Shown: piece by piece, positions 4,552 to 40,081 of the stretch
Layout of the letters: the number at the start of each line of letters is the position of its first letter
How positions within the stretch are numbered: the first letter of the stretch is position 1
DNA from: Candidatus Woesearchaeota archaeon
Lineage (GTDB): Archaea > Nanobdellota > Nanobdellia > SCGC-AAA011-G17 > JACQNH01
Assembly (NCBI GenBank): GCA_023246445.1
Contig: JAHFIJ010000001.1
Location: 1-58,730 of the forward strand
Length of the DNA stretch: 58,730 bases
Direction of reading: 5' to 3'
Made by a program: the position numbers and the translations under genes
Notes under the pieces: generated by a model
Told to the model about the DNA's origin: nothing
Seen by the model: the letters and a program-made list of their open reading frames with translations, nothing else
The model's database searches: none

Positions 4552-5250
4552 TCAACAAGGCTCGCTTAAGACTTCAAAACTACAGCCTAATTGTTTATCA
4601 GCCTCTTCTTCTATACTAAATCCAACAATCACACCTATATCATCAAATTCTCTTTTAAGTTTTTCCTCTTCAGAATTTGTAAGCCTCATTCCACAAAATT
4701 CTTCTTCAGGATTTCTCAGTCTATTTTTAGTGCTGCTATGAGAATCCAGATTTACAGCTCTTATCTTATAGCCTATAATATCGTTGCCGCTTAACAGATT
4801 AAACTTTATCTTCCAATCACCATAACTTTCTCCATAATTATTTAAATTTACGCCGCAGGTTACTAATTTCTTTGCACATACAGTCTTTTTCTTAACACAT
4901 AATCCTAGTAAATATTTTAAACATCCATCTTTAGTTTCAACACAATCAGTCTTAACACTCAAATCTGTTATTGTATACTCTTTATTTTCACATTTATTAA
5001 TTTCAGAATCCAAACAATCAGGATAAATTTCTAAAGAATTATCAATAGCCGCATAACCTGTTGGCATCACCATAGCATAAATCACAACACCCCACATCAA
5101 TACAGCAATAATTATCAATATTACAGCAACGCTAATGACTAATTTAGGAACCCTATTGCTTTTAATTTTTTTCTTGATAATCTTTTTACCACAAAATTTG
5201 CAAAACTTAGAACCGGATTCAATATTCCCCCCACATTTAGAACATTTCAT
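4552..5250 (-). CDS. zinc-ribbon membrane-anchored protein, function unknown
   Basis: N-terminal CxxC...CxxC (MKCSKCGG...CKFCGKK), one TM helix, then a Cys-containing extracytoplasmic domain. Confidence 0.5.
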   Translation of the reverse strand: MKCSKCGGNIESGSKFCKFCGKKIIKKKIKSNRVPKLVISVAVILIIIAVLMWGVVIYAMVMPTGYAAIDNSLEIYPDCLDSEINKCENKEYTITDLSVKTDCVETKDGCLKYLLGLCVKKKTVCAKKLVTCGVNLNNYGESYGDWKIKFNLLSGNDIIGYKIRAVNLDSHSSTKNRLRNPEEEFCGMRLTNSEEEKLKREFDDIGVIVGFSIEEEADKQLGCSFEVLSEPC

Positions 5251-6683: not shown

Positions 6684-9600
6684 TTATTTTAAACATTTAC
6701 CATTACTACATTTTTTCTTATTAGGACAGATTACTGTTTTTGTAGCTCTTGTTTTATCTGGTTTACATAGCTGCTCAGTAATCTTAGTCGAGCTCGCACA
6801 TACATCTTTATAATCCACACCATTAAATGTAACTACACCATATGAAAAGATATTATCCCCATCAATGTCTGAACAAGTTCTAGGCTTGCAAGCACCTTTA
6901 TCGCAGCCATTTTCGCATCCTATAGAATAAGTACCTCTCGTATTATCTGCTTTACATTTTTGCTCAAGAACTGATTTCTTATCTGAAGAACAAACATCAT
7001 AATAAGAAACACCATTGAATATAACCTTTTGCTTAACATCAGGTTCATTACCCTCATCAGTGCAAACATTCACAGTTTTACAAGCTCCATCTTCACAACC
7101 ATCAGGACAATCAATAGTATTAAATACAAATTTATTCTGATTACAAGTCCACTCAATTACCTGATTATCTTTACAGAAATCTGTTTTCGAAAATCTCTCC
7201 TCTTTTCCACTAAGGGTTATTGCCATCGCTTTAACCTTCCCTTTAGTAAACCCATTATCTCCATCAGAATCAATACATTCCATTAAAGAACCATCACCAT
7301 TGCATTTTCCTATAGCCACTCCATTTTCACTTAAAGCACAGCCATACTCACATTGATAATTTTCAGATTTAGCCTCTCCATTTTCACAATAATTCTCTTC
7401 TATTATTGTATAAATATTATCCTTAGCAAGACACAGATCATCTATTTTATTATCCCCTGTAATTACTCTTCCTGATTCATAATAATTTTTTCCATTATCT
7501 GAATCACTACAAGGCGGTTGAACATCCAAAACAACATCATCATTATCATCATACCAGCCATTCCCGCATTTATCAGCAGAATCACCAACGAATTCAAACA
7601 CACCCCTGATTACATGATACCCATCAGTGTTATCTAAATTGAAATTAAATTCAAAATCCTCAAGACCACTACCCTTACAAAGAACCGCTTTAATGGTTGA
7701 AAAATCTCTTTTTTCAGTTCTATAGACCAGATTAAAATTATCATAAGGCCCCCAACAAAAGACCTTCACATTTACCTTGACCGCATCGCCCGGTCTAAAT
7801 CTTCCCCCATTTAAATTTTCAACACTAATGCTCTCAATAGATTCATCTGACATATAATAACCCGCACCACCATCTTTACAAAAGAAAGGTTGTATTGTGT
7901 TTGGTTGATTTGGTTCATTCCCTCCTTCAATATTGTCTCTTCCCCCAATCAAAGACTCATCAGCTACGCAGGGAGATTCACTGCATATTTTTGCGACATT
8001 TAAAATACCAATCCCAGAATCAATTATTACATTTCTATCTTCAGTAGTCTCTCCATCAGTATTGAACACTTTTAATCTTAAAACATTTATATCACCTTTT
8101 TTTAATTTTAATTTTTCTGCAAAAAATAAAACACCATTTTCAACAGCCTTATCACTCCTTGTTAGCTCTCCCCATTCAATTGGATTTTCACCTAAACCAA
8201 GCTCTAATTTATAAGAACTGAATTTTCTACCGCTAGCAGTTCCTTTTATTTCAAGATTATTACCATCAACAACCCCATTTGTATCAATCTTGGCGATCGC
8301 AGGTTGTCCTCTAAAAGAAACAACATCCAAGGCATTAATCCTTCCAGCTCCTTGTGTATTAACGTCTTTGCCTAAATCAACAGTCTTGCTTTTCAATACT
8401 AATTTAACTTGCAAAGGTGTTAAATCTGGATTCTTTTGTAACAATAAAGCAGCTAATCCACTAACATGAGGTGTTGCCATTGAAGTTCCGGAAATTGCTA
8501 TATGATTCTCAATTTCAGGGTTACATTCCCTCAAACCTTCCAACCAGTAATAATATTGAGCAGCACAAATATCAACACCTGGCGCTGTTACATCTGGTTT
8601 CATCAAATATCTAGTTTGCCCATATTCATCATTCCAAATAATAGGTCCTCTTGAACTAAAAGGTGCAACATTATCAGATTTATCACTAGCCGCCACAGTT
8701 ATAGCCTTTCTAGCAGTTCCAGGAGTTCCAATTGTTCCAATTCCCCAGTATCCAGAATTACCAGCAGCGATTATTGCAACAACACCATTATCAACAACAG
8801 TGTCTATTGTTTTGGACATAGGATCATCCGGACCACAAAATAAACCATATCTCCCACAACCGGCCCCTAAACTTAAACTTATAATATCCAGATGGTCAGA
8901 AAAATCTCCATCTTGATTTGGATCCATACTTCTTTCAATTCCTGCCATTACACCAGCAAAGCTCCCGCTACCAAAACTATTCAATACTTTATAAGCATAA
9001 ATCTTAGCATCTGGAGCAATACCATTTAATTTTCCTTTTCCAGCAGCAGTAGCTGCCACATGAGTCCCATGCCCATGATCATCCATCGCATCAGTATCAT
9101 CATTCACAAAATCATAACCACCAATTACCTTATCGCAAGGTCCTGATTCTGGTTGTTGTGGAATACTTGGGCGGTTAACTTCAAGAACAACATCATCATT
9201 ATCATCATAAGGTCCAATTCCACAGGGGCTTAAACCTCCCCCATATACAAAAGAAGCTCTTATCACATGATAACCATCAACATTATCAAGAGTTACATTA
9301 AAATTAAACTCCTCAAATTGCTGTTCACCATTACAATTAACAGATTCCAAAACCTTAATTTTGTCTTCATTTTGATAAACTAAATTCAACTTGTCATAAG
9401 GTCCCCAACAATAGACCTTCACATTTACCTTGACAGCATCGCCCTGTCCAAATCTTCCCCCATTTAAATTTTCAACACTAATGCTTTCTATAGATTCGTC
9501 TTGCTTATATACCCCAGCAATGCCATCTTTACACCTGATGTCTATAGTATTTGGTTGATTTGGTTCATTCCCCCAATCAATATTGTCTCTTCCCCCAATC

Positions 9601-10448
9601 AAAGACTCATCAGCTACGCAAGGAGATTCACTGCATATTTTTGCAGCCGCATTATAATTTAATGGTTTCGTAGGGCATCCACCAAGATCTTCATGTGTAT
9701 AATCCACACCAGTATCAATAATTCCGATAGTTACTCCTTTTCCAGTTAAACATTCTTTTCCAGATTCCAAACAATTATTTCCATCAGCATCCAGCTTCCA
9801 TACCTGATCAGCCTTAATTAAAGGAACAGAATCAACTAAAAGAGCCTTAACCTCATAGTTTGGATAAACATTTTTAACAGAAGACAAAGTAGATAATTTT
9901 TTAGCTTCTACCTCAGAAATATCTAAAGCAAGACCATTAAAAGTGTTATAATACTCCCCCAGTATTATGCTCTTTTCTCCCCCGCCTACAGCATTTCCTG
10001 AAATTAAATTAGATTTACCTAGTTTATTTAAAATATCTTTCTTTGCATTTGCATGTTCCTGTATTAATTGAGATTTCGTAAGCACTGGCCTTTCCACAGT
10101 CTTAACTTCAGACGCTATTGTTGATTTCTTAGCTCTTGTAACTGCTACCCCCTGCTCTCTCTTTATTACAGCAGTTTCCACTGTCTCTGCTTTAGCTAAC
10201 AAAGGCTTACCTTTAAATTCTATAATATAACCCATTGATTTTAATTCTTCTTTAGCACCTTTTGTTTCATGTCGACTACCTCCCTTAACACCATTATCTT
10301 TTGTTTGTTGCTTAGCTTCTTTTTCAAGAACAACATCTCCTGTAACTGACTTACTTGAAAAATTTTGAAAATCTACGAAATAAATGAACAAAGAAATAAC
10401 CAAAAAAATAATAATTAAATATCTTAAAGCGTTCTTATTTTCAGCCAT
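6684..10448 (-). CDS. secreted multidomain subtilisin-like (S8) serine protease with duplicated beta-domain and four C-terminal Cys-rich modules
   Basis: 1254 aa with an N-terminal TM/signal anchor. Catalytic motifs: IIDTGVDYTHEDL (Asp), HGHGTHVAATAAG (His), AAGNSGY (Asn), SGTSMATPHVSG (Ser). Confidence 0.9.
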   Translation of the reverse strand: MAENKNALRYLIIIFLVISLFIYFVDFQNFSSKSVTGDVVLEKEAKQQTKDNGVKGGSRHETKGAKEELKSMGYIIEFKGKPLLAKAETVETAVIKREQGVAVTRAKKSTIASEVKTVERPVLTKSQLIQEHANAKKDILNKLGKSNLISGNAVGGGEKSIILGEYYNTFNGLALDISEVEAKKLSTLSSVKNVYPNYEVKALLVDSVPLIKADQVWKLDADGNNCLESGKECLTGKGVTIGIIDTGVDYTHEDLGGCPTKPLNYNAAAKICSESPCVADESLIGGRDNIDWGNEPNQPNTIDIRCKDGIAGVYKQDESIESISVENLNGGRFGQGDAVKVNVKVYCWGPYDKLNLVYQNEDKIKVLESVNCNGEQQFEEFNFNVTLDNVDGYHVIRASFVYGGGLSPCGIGPYDDNDDVVLEVNRPSIPQQPESGPCDKVIGGYDFVNDDTDAMDDHGHGTHVAATAAGKGKLNGIAPDAKIYAYKVLNSFGSGSFAGVMAGIERSMDPNQDGDFSDHLDIISLSLGAGCGRYGLFCGPDDPMSKTIDTVVDNGVVAIIAAGNSGYWGIGTIGTPGTARKAITVAASDKSDNVAPFSSRGPIIWNDEYGQTRYLMKPDVTAPGVDICAAQYYYWLEGLRECNPEIENHIAISGTSMATPHVSGLAALLLQKNPDLTPLQVKLVLKSKTVDLGKDVNTQGAGRINALDVVSFRGQPAIAKIDTNGVVDGNNLEIKGTASGRKFSSYKLELGLGENPIEWGELTRSDKAVENGVLFFAEKLKLKKGDINVLRLKVFNTDGETTEDRNVIIDSGIGILNVAKICSESPCVADESLIGGRDNIEGGNEPNQPNTIQPFFCKDGGAGYYMSDESIESISVENLNGGRFRPGDAVKVNVKVFCWGPYDNFNLVYRTEKRDFSTIKAVLCKGSGLEDFEFNFNLDNTDGYHVIRGVFEFVGDSADKCGNGWYDDNDDVVLDVQPPCSDSDNGKNYYESGRVITGDNKIDDLCLAKDNIYTIIEENYCENGEAKSENYQCEYGCALSENGVAIGKCNGDGSLMECIDSDGDNGFTKGKVKAMAITLSGKEERFSKTDFCKDNQVIEWTCNQNKFVFNTIDCPDGCEDGACKTVNVCTDEGNEPDVKQKVIFNGVSYYDVCSSDKKSVLEQKCKADNTRGTYSIGCENGCDKGACKPRTCSDIDGDNIFSYGVVTFNGVDYKDVCASSTKITEQLCKPDKTRATKTVICPNKKKCSNGKCLK
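7518..7994. repeat. intragenic repeat copy A (domain downstream of the S8 catalytic domain)
   Basis: Encodes KICSESPCVADESLIGGRDNIEGGNEPNQPNTI...DDNDDVVLDV. The run at 7935-7994 matches 9586-9645 at 59 of 60 nt. Confidence 0.85.
9176..9645. repeat. intragenic repeat copy B (domain inserted between catalytic Asp and His)
   Basis: Encodes KICSESPCVADESLIGGRDNIDWGNEPNQPNTI...DDNDDVVLEV. Long near-identical DNA runs are shared with 7518-7994. Confidence 0.85.
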
Positions 10449-10485: not shown

Positions 10486-10540
10486 AATCTTATTTATAAA
10501 TATTACTAACCACTAATAAATAATTAAAAAAAAGAAAAAG
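10486..10540 (-). promoter_or_regulatory. duplicated promoter block (copy 1) upstream of the S8 protease gene
   Basis: The ~55-nt block aatcttatttataaatattactaaccactaataaataattaaaaaaa(a)gaaaaag contains TATA-like TTTATAAATA on the minus strand, ~45 nt upstream of the ATG. A conserved GAGGATGAT Shine-Dalgarno follows. Confidence 0.7.
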
Positions 10541-10545
10541 GGAAG

Positions 10546-11937
10546 TTATCCTAATGCAAAGCTATTTGCCTTTACCCCACATACATTTTCAGCATCACAA
10601 TGCCCTTCACATGATTTAGCTGCGTATTGCAACCATAATGTAGCAGACACATGAGTCTGACTCTTTCCAGTCATTTGGATATTATCATTACATATCCAAC
10701 TAGCTTTAGTCACAGTAGTTATATTAGCTATTACAACTTTTGTGTCTAATAATCTTCCAAGCTTATCCAGGAATTTTACTTCAAAGTTTTTATTCCCACT
10801 AAGGCTACAACTAAATGATGCAAATCTAAATGCATGTTCTAATGTTCCGGCAGGGAAAGTCTTTGTTATATTACCATCCCCTCCATTATCATCTATGTAT
10901 TCATCAGTTCCGGGAGAAACTTCAGTATCATTGAATGCGCATCCTTGAGGTATATTTACACTAACAAAATGCTCAAATGGATTATTTTTTGCACTACCTC
11001 TGATCTCAAAGTTGATATTAGCCTCTAAATTTGTAACTGCACTTCCTGCACTGTTGGTTATTGCAACACCACTCAACTCAGGTCTTGTAGATACAGCCTT
11101 ACATTGCCCACCTTTATTAGTTGTTTCACATCCAGTCTGACATATTTGCGTCTCAAATTTAGTAGTTCCTTGATCACAAAAACGCTCTATCAAACCTCTA
11201 CCGGGGAACACAACATCCGAACATACATCTTGATCTCCACTACCATCTTGTGCAGTTGTTGATCCGGCTTCAAATGGATTTACTCCACCATCACTATCTA
11301 TACATCTACAATCAAACTCTGCTCTCTTTGTCCCCCCAATAACTGTAGTTGTTTTCTTATCATTACAATTACTGCTCCATATTATCTTTTCATTTTTCTT
11401 ACCCTTTATATTCTTAACAATACAACTCGTAAAATCAGTTGCATTGCTCTCACAACTCCCTTTTTTAGATACACATCTTTGTTGGACTATAGCTCCGGTA
11501 AATTTGCAGGTAACATCCTCTTTAATTTCAACTGTAGGTGTAGGTTTAGGTGCAGGTGCAGGTTTAGGTGCAGTTTGTTTTTTACATACAAAATTTGCAA
11601 CATTATCTTTGCCCATTTCAGTCGTATCGGAACGGACTACGCTGCATGTGCTTGACCATATAAGTTTTGCACCTTGTCTAAGATTAACATTTTTAATTAC
11701 ACAACTTTCAAAATCATTTCTCATGCTTCGACAAGAAAATCCATTAGCCATACTATTTCCATCCCAACATGTTTGTGAAGAAGTCGCACCATCAAAAACA
11801 CATTTTATTTCTACTGAAGTATCTACGGATTTTTTAACTAAATTACCAGTTAAATAATCAAGAAATCCTGCAGAAACAAAAGAACTCAAAACAACAACAC
11901 TTAAAATCGTAAAAAATAATATCATAATTTTTCTCAT
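10546..11937 (-). CDS. secreted Cys-rich protein with internal duplication and one CxDSDG module
   Basis: Signal peptide MRKIMILFFTILSVVVLSSFVSA. Two related Cys domains are separated by a PAPAPKPTP linker. Start moved to the ATG at 11937 because GGAGG lies 9 nt upstream of it; the track ORF extends to 11946. Confidence 0.6.
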   Translation of the reverse strand: MRKIMILFFTILSVVVLSSFVSAGFLDYLTGNLVKKSVDTSVEIKCVFDGATSSQTCWDGNSMANGFSCRSMRNDFESCVIKNVNLRQGAKLIWSSTCSVVRSDTTEMGKDNVANFVCKKQTAPKPAPAPKPTPTVEIKEDVTCKFTGAIVQQRCVSKKGSCESNATDFTSCIVKNIKGKKNEKIIWSSNCNDKKTTTVIGGTKRAEFDCRCIDSDGGVNPFEAGSTTAQDGSGDQDVCSDVVFPGRGLIERFCDQGTTKFETQICQTGCETTNKGGQCKAVSTRPELSGVAITNSAGSAVTNLEANINFEIRGSAKNNPFEHFVSVNIPQGCAFNDTEVSPGTDEYIDDNGGDGNITKTFPAGTLEHAFRFASFSCSLSGNKNFEVKFLDKLGRLLDTKVVIANITTVTKASWICNDNIQMTGKSQTHVSATLWLQYAAKSCEGHCDAENVCGVKANSFALG

Positions 11938-11994
11938 CAAAATCATCCTCCAATTTTTATTGTTAACTAATATACACCAAATATAGTATCAAAT

Positions 11995-12048
11995 AATCTT
12001 ATTTATAAATATTACTAACCACTAATAAATAATTAAAAAAAGAAAAAG
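11995..12048 (-). promoter_or_regulatory. duplicated promoter block (copy 2) upstream of the Cys-rich secreted protein gene
   Basis: Near-identical to 10486-10540, differing by one A in the A-run. Confidence 0.7.
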
Positions 12049-24220: not shown

Positions 24221-24646
24221 ATGGGTAAAAACAACTATACTCCTTATTTTAGCTGTGTTATTCATACAATAGGCAACTATTTTGATAGTCTTTTAGCCAT
24301 ATTACCAAGATTCAATCACCAAGTAGAACTTCCAAAGGATACAATCCCAAAAGAACCAACTTTAGAAGAATTAAGACAAAGAATTGAAAAAGCTGACCGA
24401 ATGATACTTGAAGGCCTAGCAAAAAGAATTAAAGCTTGCGGAGAATTAGGCGAATTTAAAAGAGTATATAATGTGCCTGTTCCTGATTGGAAAAGGGAAC
24501 TAGAAGTAGAAAAAGAATGGGTAAAAATAATCAACCCTTCCCAAAATAGGCTTTTAGTATATGTTCAACAAATGTGTCGTCTGGTAATAGAGATGTCTAA
24601 AGTGATACAGGAAGATAAACAAATAAAAGATTACAATCCCAAATAA
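24221..24646 (+). CDS. AroQ-type chorismate mutase-like protein
   Basis: LEELRQRIEKADRMILEGLAKRIKACGELGEFKRVYNVPVPDWKRELEV matches the CM type II helix pattern (LR..ID..D..L..LL..R......K......D..RE). The ~45-aa N-terminal extension is uncertain. Confidence 0.5.
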   Translation: MGKNNYTPYFSCVIHTIGNYFDSLLAILPRFNHQVELPKDTIPKEPTLEELRQRIEKADRMILEGLAKRIKACGELGEFKRVYNVPVPDWKRELEVEKEWVKIINPSQNRLLVYVQQMCRLVIEMSKVIQEDKQIKDYNPK

Positions 24647-25053
24647 CTAAAAACCAATAATAAAATATTAACTAAATAAATACTGTTGCAGATTAAACAA
24701 AAGCTTCTAACCTTAAAATATAATATATAAGCCAGATATATTGAACCTAAAACAGCTATTAAAGATAAATAAAATACATAAGTCATACTATAAAAGCTCA
24801 ATAAAAACACAATAATGTAAAATATCATTCCATAAAAAGAATTAGATATCCCAAAGGTCTTTCCATAATGGCTATTAAAAGCCTTGGTGCAGGAGATTTT
24901 ATTATTTATATCGCAAACAGCCTTATAATTTTTATTTTTAGATTTTATTTCAACATAACAAGAATACAAGGATAATAATAAACCAATAATACTTACTATA
25001 ACCACCCCTAAAGAAGATATCATACTTTTAGATATTAAAGAGATATACACCAT
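24631..25053 (-). CDS. VKOR-family (vitamin K epoxide reductase-like) membrane thiol oxidoreductase
   Basis: 140 aa, 4 TM helices. Loop Cys pair C-x7-C (CDINNKISC) and CxxC in the last TM (CLIC). Confidence 0.7.
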   Translation of the reverse strand: MVYISLISKSMISSLGVVIVSIIGLLLSLYSCYVEIKSKNKNYKAVCDINNKISCTKAFNSHYGKTFGISNSFYGMIFYIIVFLLSFYSMTYVFYLSLIAVLGSIYLAYILYFKVRSFCLICNSIYLVNILLLVFSYLGL

Positions 25054-38026: not shown

Positions 38027-40081
38027 ATGAAAAAGAAGAGGTCTGAAGTAGAATATAAGCTAGTTTTCATACTGATAATCTCTTTCTTAATTATTTCTTT
38101 ATTATCTTTTACAAACTTAACTGGATTTTTAATCGTTGGTTGTAATGATTCTGATAATGGAGATAAATATGTAAAAGGAACATTAAGCTACCAGAGTTTA
38201 AAAGCAGATGATGAATGTATTCAGGATAAGCTGGCAGAGTATTTTTGCAATCCTTCAGGTATTCCAAGCGTTACAATAAGCGAATGCCCTTCGGGGTGTG
38301 TTAATGGCGCATGTAAAAAAATTGAAAACAAAACTACTTACAAAGAAATTTTTCAAATTAAGCAGGGTTCTGATGTTCTTGAGATAAATGAATTTATAGG
38401 TGATGTCCTAAGCTCAATAACCTCAAATGAAATGCCTTTTCTATTAAAAAGTTCAAGTATAAGCACAAGTAATGGAATTTCACGCTATAATCAATACTTA
38501 ACATTTAATGATACAGATTTACAGACAGGAAAAGTAAAGTTTGACGAGGATGAAGGTGAAATTTCAGATTTCTTATTTTTCGACGAAGATAATTACTTAT
38601 TTGAATATGAACTTGACTTTGGAAATAATCTAATAAGTGATATAAGCTCATCAAATAAGCTTGAAGACTTGCACAATGAAAAATTAAATATCTTAGGAAA
38701 CGAATATCAAATTATAGACAGCAATGTAAATGGAAATACAGTAGAACTTAAATTTATTGGGGGGAAAATAAAAGATACATTAAAAGAAGGAGAATCAAAA
38801 ACATACAATCTTAAAGGAAAACAGTATAATGTTAAATTAGTCTTAGTAAGTAATGATAGAGCCATCTTTGAAATAAACAGTAACAGAAGCAAAACCTTGG
38901 AAGAAGGAGAAGTAGACTCTTTAGATGACATTTCAATCGCAGTAATCTCAATCTTAGAAGATAATAAAGGAGATCTAGTTGACTTCTATTTAGACAGTAA
39001 CATGTTCAAATTCAAAGACACTATAAATGATGACAATTTCAGGCAGGGTGTTGAAATCAACGGCAATATTATTTCAGATGGCTTTGTTAAGATAAAGGGA
39101 GAAAAAACCTCAACAGAAGTAAAAATAAACAATATAAAATACAAAGTAAAGGCCAAAGGAATAAGAGCTGGTGATTTATTTGTTCCTCCGGGCAGCAGCG
39201 TTAAAAATAATATCCCTAACCCATCACTTTTTCTTGGGAGCTGGGATATCTTGTATCAAGGATTATTAAATGAAGTAAAAAAATTAAACAACAATCTTAT
39301 AATATTTAATCCTTCAGGAAGCAAATATAGATTAGTATTCACAAATCTTAAAGGCAAAACATATTCAATCCCTTTCATAAGCAATAATGCCGGAACCTTA
39401 ACAATAGGCAATGATGAAGACACATTATATTTCATAGAAGCTTCTTCCACTAATAATTTTATTATTAACACCAAAGATTATTTTATCCTAACCTCAAAAA
39501 ACTCTAACAGCGGCATAACAAATATTTTAAGATACAATTCTCTAAATGAAGAAAATAAACAATTAAGTGTTGTTGATTTAGCAGAAGGCAAGAAAGATGT
39601 AATCTACACAGGCACACCAGGAACAAATGCTGTAGCAAATTTAGTAATCTCAGGAAGAACATATAAAGTTTATATTGGTTCAGCACCCGATTATAAATTA
39701 GCAGTTGACTTAAATGGTGACAATGATCTGGCAAGTGATGAAGTAAACATAATTACAAACGGTGGTGGAATCTTAGACTTAGGTTCTGCACAAACCTCCA
39801 GCAATAATTTCAATATGACACTAACCACAGAATCAAGGCAGTTCAACAAAAGAACAACAAATGAAAACATTAATATTGAAGTGCAAAAAGACGGGAGTAG
39901 TGTTAATATAAATCTGCCATCTCAATCAGACTTAGCATTAGAAAGCGTTTCAGGTGGAAAAGAAGGGCTAAGCAGCTTCGGAATTGAGTTTACTTTAACA
40001 GAAAAATCAGGTCCTGATAAATTAACAGTTATATACCCCGGTCAACAGGCAGAAGCAAATGTTAGTATTATTTCATATTGA
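38027..40081 (+). CDS. surface protein (S-layer-like candidate) with N-terminal CxDSDG module
   Basis: 684 aa. Signal anchor, Cys module at aa 39-96, then a long Cys-free region rich in Asn/Ser/Ile that looks beta-rich. Confidence 0.55.
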   Translation: MKKKRSEVEYKLVFILIISFLIISLLSFTNLTGFLIVGCNDSDNGDKYVKGTLSYQSLKADDECIQDKLAEYFCNPSGIPSVTISECPSGCVNGACKKIENKTTYKEIFQIKQGSDVLEINEFIGDVLSSITSNEMPFLLKSSSISTSNGISRYNQYLTFNDTDLQTGKVKFDEDEGEISDFLFFDEDNYLFEYELDFGNNLISDISSSNKLEDLHNEKLNILGNEYQIIDSNVNGNTVELKFIGGKIKDTLKEGESKTYNLKGKQYNVKLVLVSNDRAIFEINSNRSKTLEEGEVDSLDDISIAVISILEDNKGDLVDFYLDSNMFKFKDTINDDNFRQGVEINGNIISDGFVKIKGEKTSTEVKINNIKYKVKAKGIRAGDLFVPPGSSVKNNIPNPSLFLGSWDILYQGLLNEVKKLNNNLIIFNPSGSKYRLVFTNLKGKTYSIPFISNNAGTLTIGNDEDTLYFIEASSTNNFIINTKDYFILTSKNSNSGITNILRYNSLNEENKQLSVVDLAEGKKDVIYTGTPGTNAVANLVISGRTYKVYIGSAPDYKLAVDLNGDNDLASDEVNIITNGGGILDLGSAQTSSNNFNMTLTTESRQFNKRTTNENINIEVQKDGSSVNINLPSQSDLALESVSGGKEGLSSFGIEFTLTEKSGPDKLTVIYPGQQAEANVSIISY

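Follow-up and report, generated by a model that had tools for sequence, protein, structure and literature searches.

Repeats of the epidermal growth factor (EGF) type comprise about 40 residues with six Cys, form two small two-stranded sheets and are held by disulfides joining Cys 1-3, 2-4 and 5-6. The animal calcium-binding EGF (cbEGF) and low-density lipoprotein (LDL) receptor class A repeats are likewise small, extracellular six-Cys units that stand in tandem with short linkers and form stalks. Archaea of the DPANN group and bacteria of the candidate phyla radiation (CPR) live attached to other cells by a mechanism that is largely unknown, and the majority of their surface proteins are annotated just as 'hypothetical'. 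Here, we describe a six-Cys module of 60 to 72 residues, six copies of which are encoded in a 58,730-nucleotide stretch of DNA from a Candidatus Woesearchaeota archaeon (assembly GCA_023246445.1, contig JAHFIJ010000001.1, positions 1 to 58,730), hereafter the window. This stretch corresponds to contig C23 of a genome of 883 kb in 46 contigs, with a G+C content of 31% and a completeness of about 91%. The module represents a large undescribed domain family, for which no match was found, by sequence or by fold, in the libraries searched.

Four of the six copies belong to a protease, one to a secreted protein encoded beside it and one to an S-layer-type protein. The three genes and the six module copies are as follows.

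Positions 6684 to 10448, minus strand: gene of an exported subtilisin-like (S8) protease of 1254 amino acids (open reading frame list and Pfam).
Positions 10546 to 11946, minus strand: gene of a secreted Cys-rich orphan protein of 466 amino acids with a signal peptide (open reading frame), the next gene upstream of the protease gene on the same strand.
Positions 38027 to 40081, plus strand: gene of an S-layer-type protein of 684 amino acids, with the module directly after the N-terminal signal segment.
Positions 7299 to 7511, minus strand: protease module 1 (profile E = 3e-15 and motif scan), with a long C5-C6 loop, CALSENGVAIGKC.
Positions 7077 to 7280, minus strand: protease module 2 (CIDSDGDNGF...CEDGAC; profile E = 2e-21), the example chosen in an earlier note on this DNA.
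Positions 6885 to 7064, minus strand: protease module 3 (profile E = 3e-16).
Positions 6690 to 6878, minus strand: protease module 4, the last residues of the protein (profile E = 7e-20 and translation of the open reading frame).
Positions 11098 to 11307, minus strand: the single module of the 466-residue protein (profile E = 7e-17).
Positions 38141 to 38317, plus strand: the N-terminal module of the 684-residue S-layer-type protein (profile E = 9e-18).

The window copies were located by a six-frame motif scan together with a profile search of the genome. With a profile of the genome's own copies, the E-values per copy ranged from 1e-14 to 1e-25, ruling out chance as the source of the repeat, and a profile built from the six window copies yielded precisely those six in the window, each with an E-value of 1e-20 to 1e-24. 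The earlier note had reported these six copies as one homologous unit common to three secreted proteins; the positions and the pattern proved correct, and the profile matches bear out the homology. Secretion is likewise predicted for all three proteins, each of which starts with a signal-like hydrophobic segment, as do the stand-alone relatives described below. A fourth protein had been overlooked: a gene on contig C16 (22833..20863, minus strand), cut by the contig end, encodes at least nine tandem copies, and the module total in the genome is 15 copies. Two of the C16 copies are identical and the others nearly so, with linkers reading PEPPVITPT, and the contig probably ends inside the gene because the repeats broke the assembly.

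Invariant in the six window copies are all six Cys, the Asp at position 4 (D4), the Asp that precedes C2, a Glu three residues ahead of C3 and the Gly that precedes C6. Conservation was further evaluated on an alignment of 1,305 full-length copies, in which loci fetched from other genomes were pooled with the 150 best proteins of a wide profile search (both described below). The six Cys were conserved at approximately 100%, D4 at 92% (otherwise Glu), D6 at 96%, G8 at 90%, G15 at 93%, D28 at 98%, E38 at 97% and G60 at 96%, so that conservation at the acidic positions D4, D6, D28 and E38 was 92 to 98%, with exchanges between Asp and Glu only. Tyr was common at positions 11, 12, 39, 40 and 51. 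The module follows the consensus xCxDSDGGxNYYxKGxV...DxC....LxEYYC.........YxCPxGCxDGAC, and its Cys spacing is C1-x21-39-C2-x9-10 (to 24)-C3-x11-12 (to 23)-C4-x3 (1-6)-C5-x4-C6, the most frequent distances being C1-x25-30-C2, C2-x10-C3, C3-x11-12-C4, C4-x3-C5 and C5-x4-C6. The earlier note had held a variable Cys spacing to be fatal to its proposal, and in this alignment the spacing was conserved. Six Cys were counted in 1,165 copies, eight in 109, ten in 10 and an odd number in 14, that is, an even number in 1,284 of 1,298 copies, which indirectly favours pairing in disulfides. Cys-deficient copies were inspected for the disulfide pairing but were uninformative, nearly all of them reflecting alignment shifts or relocated Cys. 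As judged from the aligned sequences, all copies belong to a single homologous family, marked by six invariant Cys and by acidic residues that hardly vary at four positions.

No described family was found to cover the module, in agreement with the earlier note, which had been unable to give it a name. Searches of Pfam-A (2025 copy) and NCBIfam 20 with the window proteins and with eight proteins that consist almost wholly of canonical copies returned nothing on the module at E<=1, and no PHROGs family matched it. When sequences in the PDB were searched with profiles of 6 and 117 copies, the best E-values were 0.23 and 2, respectively, both for unrelated proteins. The public names of ten module-rich proteins were all 'hypothetical' or 'uncharacterised', and no description of the module was found in full-text literature on DPANN surface, cysteine-rich and disulfide topics. 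Particular candidates were also considered and rejected. EGF-like and calcium-binding EGF domains (PF00008 and PF07645) gave no profile match at E<=1, and Foldseek gave no EGF-fold match. The LDL receptor class A domain (PF00057) did not match at E<=1 either, and the acidic motif of the module is N-terminal rather than the C-terminal D-x-S-D-E cage. Thrombospondin type 3 (TSP3), bacterial TSP3 and dockerin loops did not match on the module, the Dockerin_1 matches in two module-bearing proteins (P0008 and P0018) lying outside the modules. Neither NCBIfam nor Pfam gave a match to the Myxococcus cysteine-rich repeat (TIGR02232 / DUF4215, of the CxxGxxExGEECDDGN type).

The fold of protease module 2 was predicted with AlphaFold2 from the 117-copy alignment, with a mean predicted local distance difference test score (pLDDT) of 96.0 and a predicted template modelling score (pTM) of 0.77. 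The model is all-beta, with six main beta strands: a short strand at the N terminus is followed by two main hairpins and then by a small one at the C terminus. A tandem model of modules 3 and 4 reached a pLDDT of 96.6 throughout, including the 4-residue linker, and a pTM of 0.68. According to these very confident predictions, the module is an autonomous, self-folding all-beta extracellular domain. The fold comparison covered PDB and BFVD and gave no match at E<=0.001 in any of three Foldseek searches: the single model against 350,542 PDB chains (best E = 1.1, template modelling score 0.38), the tandem model against PDB (best E = 0.58) and the single model against BFVD (best E = 0.43), with unrelated folds as the best hits in each case.

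We consider that the module is more likely than not a disulfide-stapled surface stalk and contact element, probably stabilised by calcium. The six Cys would pair as three disulfides, while D4, D6, D28 and E38 would either bind calcium or act as a hydrogen-bond clamp, in both cases locking the DSDGG loop at the N terminus onto the central hairpin. Each module would then be a small bead that resists proteases. Strung in arrays, such beads may serve as semi-rigid stalks that keep enzymes or coat domains at the surface of the cell, and may also display repeated contact surfaces to a partner, which could be a host cell or the envelope of the cell itself. In the window, four beads would thus form the C-terminal tail of the S8 protease, one would be carried by the 466-residue secreted protein, the gene of which shares a putative promoter block with that of the protease, and one would make the N-terminal tip of the S-layer-type protein, so that the module could be the stalk and contact element that the surface proteins of this cell have in common. 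A common anchoring or host-binding function, as the earlier note had proposed, is a reasonable inference.

The distribution of the module is centred on DPANN archaea and patchy in CPR bacteria and in a few methanogens. A wide search, in which a profile of 11 genome copies was run against 1.84 billion cluster representatives, detected the module in 8,037 representatives at E<=1e-3, in 2,700 at E<=1e-10 and in 375 at E<=1e-30; single proteins carried as many as 25 copies. Among genomes of the same order, 32 of 41 carried it, and at E<=1e-5 it was present in 216 of 301 (72%) high-quality genomes of the window's phylum. One Parcubacteria genome had the module on three contigs, and 19 of the 201 genomes of its class (CPR) were positive (about 10%); in the class of a Methanoregula genome, the figure was 6 of 151 (4%). 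Loci were also fetched from species-representative genomes by a degenerate DNA pattern for C.DSDGG.NYY, and the whole module was confirmed by profile in 109 of 120 of them. The archaeal groups represented were Woese-, Pace-, Nano-, Aenigm-, Micr-, Iain-, Undin-, Nanohalo- and Altiarchaeota; the CPR bacteria (L018, L032, L037, L046, L066 and L080) were from Peribacteria, Paceibacter, Parcubacteria, Saccharibacteria and Buchananbacteria, and the few euryarchaeal loci included L014 and L061, from methanogen or Archaeoglobus genomes. The low-frequency occurrence in CPR bacteria and methanogens would be compatible with transfer between cohabiting organisms.

The module is a reusable building block in exported proteins of DPANN-type archaea. 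Pfam searches of 73 module-bearing reading frames from other genomes identified partner domains of extracellular types, namely papain-type (Peptidase_C1), M14 and C25 peptidases, S_layer_C, Dockerin, PKD, FG-GAP, CBM60, PEGA, Laminin_G_3, CARDB, Kazal, Mucin2_WxxW and DsbA/Thioredoxin_4. Close relatives of the window protease in Woesearchaeota retained the same four modules in unchanged order, and the variant seen as module 1, again followed by module 2, turned up as a cassette in P0008 and P0009, neither of which is a protease. In 1,023 adjacent pairs of modules, the linkers had a median length of 8 residues, a mode of 4 to 7 and a composition rich in Thr, Pro and Ser. Such short linkers, together with the arrays of up to 25 copies and with invariant positions that are all structural in type, would suit an inert spacer, in which the beads contribute length and protease resistance and bind nothing. 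We regard this explanation as quite improbable, since some proteins consist of an anchor and one bead with nothing else, and since specific variants, such as the module 1-2 cassette, have been kept across different architectures.

The anchored single beads came to light in two same-order relatives, in which five to six small genes (106 to 131 amino acids) stand in arrays and each encode a hydrophobic N-terminal segment and a single module. These array loci (L129, G008:C1:199300-201900, and L130, G035:C1:752300-757800) adjoin a release-factor (aRF1-like) gene, and the paralogues within them have diverged. The existence of stand-alone anchored single-module genes indicates that the module is functional alone. 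It also favours a lectin-like or adhesin module, each bead binding a defined glycan or protein of the host or of the cell's own envelope and the arrays being multivalent, with specificity set by the variable beta2-beta3 hairpin and the C2-C3 loop. Consistent with such binding are the tandem arrangement of these diverging genes, the single modules appended to enzymes in the manner of carbohydrate-binding modules, the C1-C2 (21 to 39 residues) and C2-C3 (9 to 24 residues) segments that vary in length and sequence around an invariant frame, and the concentration of the module in episymbiotic lineages of both domains of life. However, no known lectin or carbohydrate-binding module was similar in sequence or fold, and the near-invariant residues (Cys, Gly and acidic residues) look structural. 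An adhesin is possible, although we lean against it as the full explanation, and it overlaps with the stalk and contact element that we favour instead of excluding it. A bolder version, which we think rather unlikely, would make the module a calcium-dependent attachment fold specific to ultra-small episymbionts, which DPANN archaea and CPR bacteria would have exchanged and which would mediate contact with the host envelope; the anchored gene arrays would then be a variable host-recognition repertoire, and the protease and S-layer beads would target the same host surface.

Several observations weigh against the module as a calcium-stabilised, disulfide-stapled stalk and contact element. The Foldseek searches of PDB and BFVD provided no structural relative that points to a function. 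Mean-field covariation weakly placed loop positions 7 and 9 beside positions 38-40 and 54-55, which speaks for a loop lying next to the acidic position 38, but the signal was noisy and unstable at the invariant Cys columns, and the few loop contacts are hints only. The conserved Tyr may merely form the core of a tiny domain, in which case they offer no argument for a ligand. Anchored single-module proteins cannot space anything, which suggests that a pure stalk role is too narrow. Together with the conserved module variants, these stand-alone forms suggest that the role of the module goes beyond added length, and for this reason we rated a binding role as the main rival of the stalk and contact element, or as a refinement of it. 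Lastly, 11 of the 32 module-positive genomes of the same order had neither VKOR nor Thioredoxin_4 above the cut-off, other oxidases not having been searched, and six of these 11 were at least 93% complete.

The last point concerns the disulfide-forming machinery. The window itself encodes one candidate enzyme, and the genome has a DsbA-like Thioredoxin_4 gene on contig C8.

Positions 24646 to 25005, minus strand: VKOR homologue, candidate disulfide-generating membrane enzyme (PF07884, E = 1.4e-27, above the cut-off).

Co-occurrence was counted in the 41 nearest genomes, all of the same order, a small sample that is phylogenetically non-independent.

Module-positive genomes (32): VKOR in 13, Thioredoxin_4 in 18.
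Module-negative genomes (9): VKOR in 8, Thioredoxin_4 in 8.

The earlier note had looked to co-occurrence with VKOR/DsbA-like genes as a check, and this expectation failed, the association between VKOR and the module being inverse in these non-independent genomes (Fisher p = 0.02). The positive genomes that lack both genes would fit a different reading, in which the six Cys bind a metal (Zn, Fe or Cu) and form no disulfides, so that the module would handle a metal or be stabilised by one; such chemistry might be suited to anoxic habitats, in which module-bearing organisms often live. However, the C-x3-C-x4-C arrangement in CPxGCxxGAC and the all-beta bead resemble disulfide-rich extracellular repeats and not CxxC metal sites, the eight- and ten-Cys variants gain Cys in pairs, as extra disulfides would, and the genome studied here has both VKOR and DsbA. 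Metal binding by the Cys of the module is unlikely, and a domain built around a metal appears very improbable as an account of the family.

Turning to the carrier proteins, the protease begins with an N-terminal hydrophobic signal or anchor, followed by an I9 propeptide, an S8 catalytic domain with an insert of about 150 residues, a second copy of this insert and the four modules. Its sequence matched Peptidase_S8 (PF00082) over profile positions 1-288 with E = 4.3e-52 and Inhibitor_I9 with E = 5.6e-7; by this full-length match and the I9 propeptide, the carrier is assigned to Peptidase S8. The final 277 residues are the four six-Cys units, arranged head to tail, and a membrane anchor after module 4 is absent. 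The duplicated domain of about 150 residues contains Cys, and its copies (window positions 7518-7994 and 9176-9645, minus strand) share 67% identity; one lies within the catalytic domain before the His motif, and the other separates that domain from the modules. Neither copy is covered by a Pfam family.

The 466-residue protein has two N-terminal repeats of about 75 residues with another Cys pattern, one central module and a C-terminal part without family. The N-terminal repeats (window positions 11266-11814, minus strand) are six-Cys units of the form VEIKC...IWSS(T/N)C...C, unrelated to the module, and gave no library match. The protein as a whole had no Pfam or NCBIfam match, and a word-indexed search of 5.8 billion proteins returned it alone. 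Its gene and that of the protease are each preceded by the same sequence block.

Positions 10486 to 10532, minus strand: 47-nucleotide block upstream of the protease gene, containing a TATA-like TTTATAAATA and identical to 11995-12041.
Positions 11995 to 12041, minus strand: the same 47-nucleotide upstream block, ahead of the gene of the 466-residue protein and identical to 10486-10532.

The block occurs in exactly two copies genome-wide, both upstream of these genes, and this identity suggests that the two genes are under common regulation, with the block as a candidate promoter.

The 684-residue protein was itself below every Pfam threshold and had no direct match to PF05124. The label 'S-layer-like' in the earlier note holds indirectly, as distant homologues of the protein (P0169-P0175, E-values of 1e-31 to 1e-70) bear Pfam S_layer_C (PF05124); these homologues are without the module. 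The orthologues (P0161-P0168, 39-64% identity) all retain it, at residues of about 32-110.

Two further observations concern exported proteins more generally. A (L/I/F/T)-T-G motif was found a few residues past the signal-like hydrophobic stretch in 22 of 251 putative exported proteins of this genome, versus 3.8% of random 30-residue windows. Its sites include window positions 38027-38140, 10330-10448 and 11830-11946 and others on other contigs, and the stand-alone module proteins of the relatives have TTGNV, TTGKV or VTGF; the motif may be a processing or sorting site. A 232-residue protein encoded next to trpS (window positions 4552-5250, minus strand), a further surface protein without assignment, combines an N-terminal zinc-ribbon (weak Pfam matches) with a single transmembrane segment and an outer part rich in Cys.

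Found in 72% of the sampled genomes of the phylum and in thousands of clusters, the module is among the commonest recurring pieces of such surface proteins. A family definition would provide thousands of proteins with an annotation together and flag candidate surface and host-contact proteins in uncultured genomes, and the scattered occurrence of the module in CPR bacteria and methanogens offers a marker for gene exchange among ultra-small organisms that live together. The module is also small enough for expression, structure solution and calcium- and ligand-binding tests.

The module is not a new type of system, for its general design, a small extracellular repeat rich in Cys, is a familiar one. 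Among described proteins, the 684-residue window protein is a distant homologue of archaeal S-layer proteins with S_layer_C (PF05124), and while its own lineage carries the module at the N terminus, the S_layer_C-bearing homologues do without it. The D-S-D-G-G-x-N/D stretch of the module is rich in Asp and Gly, like the calcium loops of thrombospondin type 3 and dockerin type I, and dockerin domains occur in some proteins that also bear the module; however, the register is DxDGGxN and not the DxDxDG of those loops, and the motif sits inside a Cys-containing beta domain. With the animal cbEGF and LDL receptor class A repeats, the module shares not only the small six-Cys build and the tandem arrangement noted at the outset but also conserved acidic residues that suggest a calcium site and a fusion to many other domains. 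It differs from them in its length (60 to 72 versus about 40 residues) and its Cys spacing, and it matched neither by sequence in Pfam at E<=1, nor any PDB chain by fold. The resemblance is one of design and not of ancestry.

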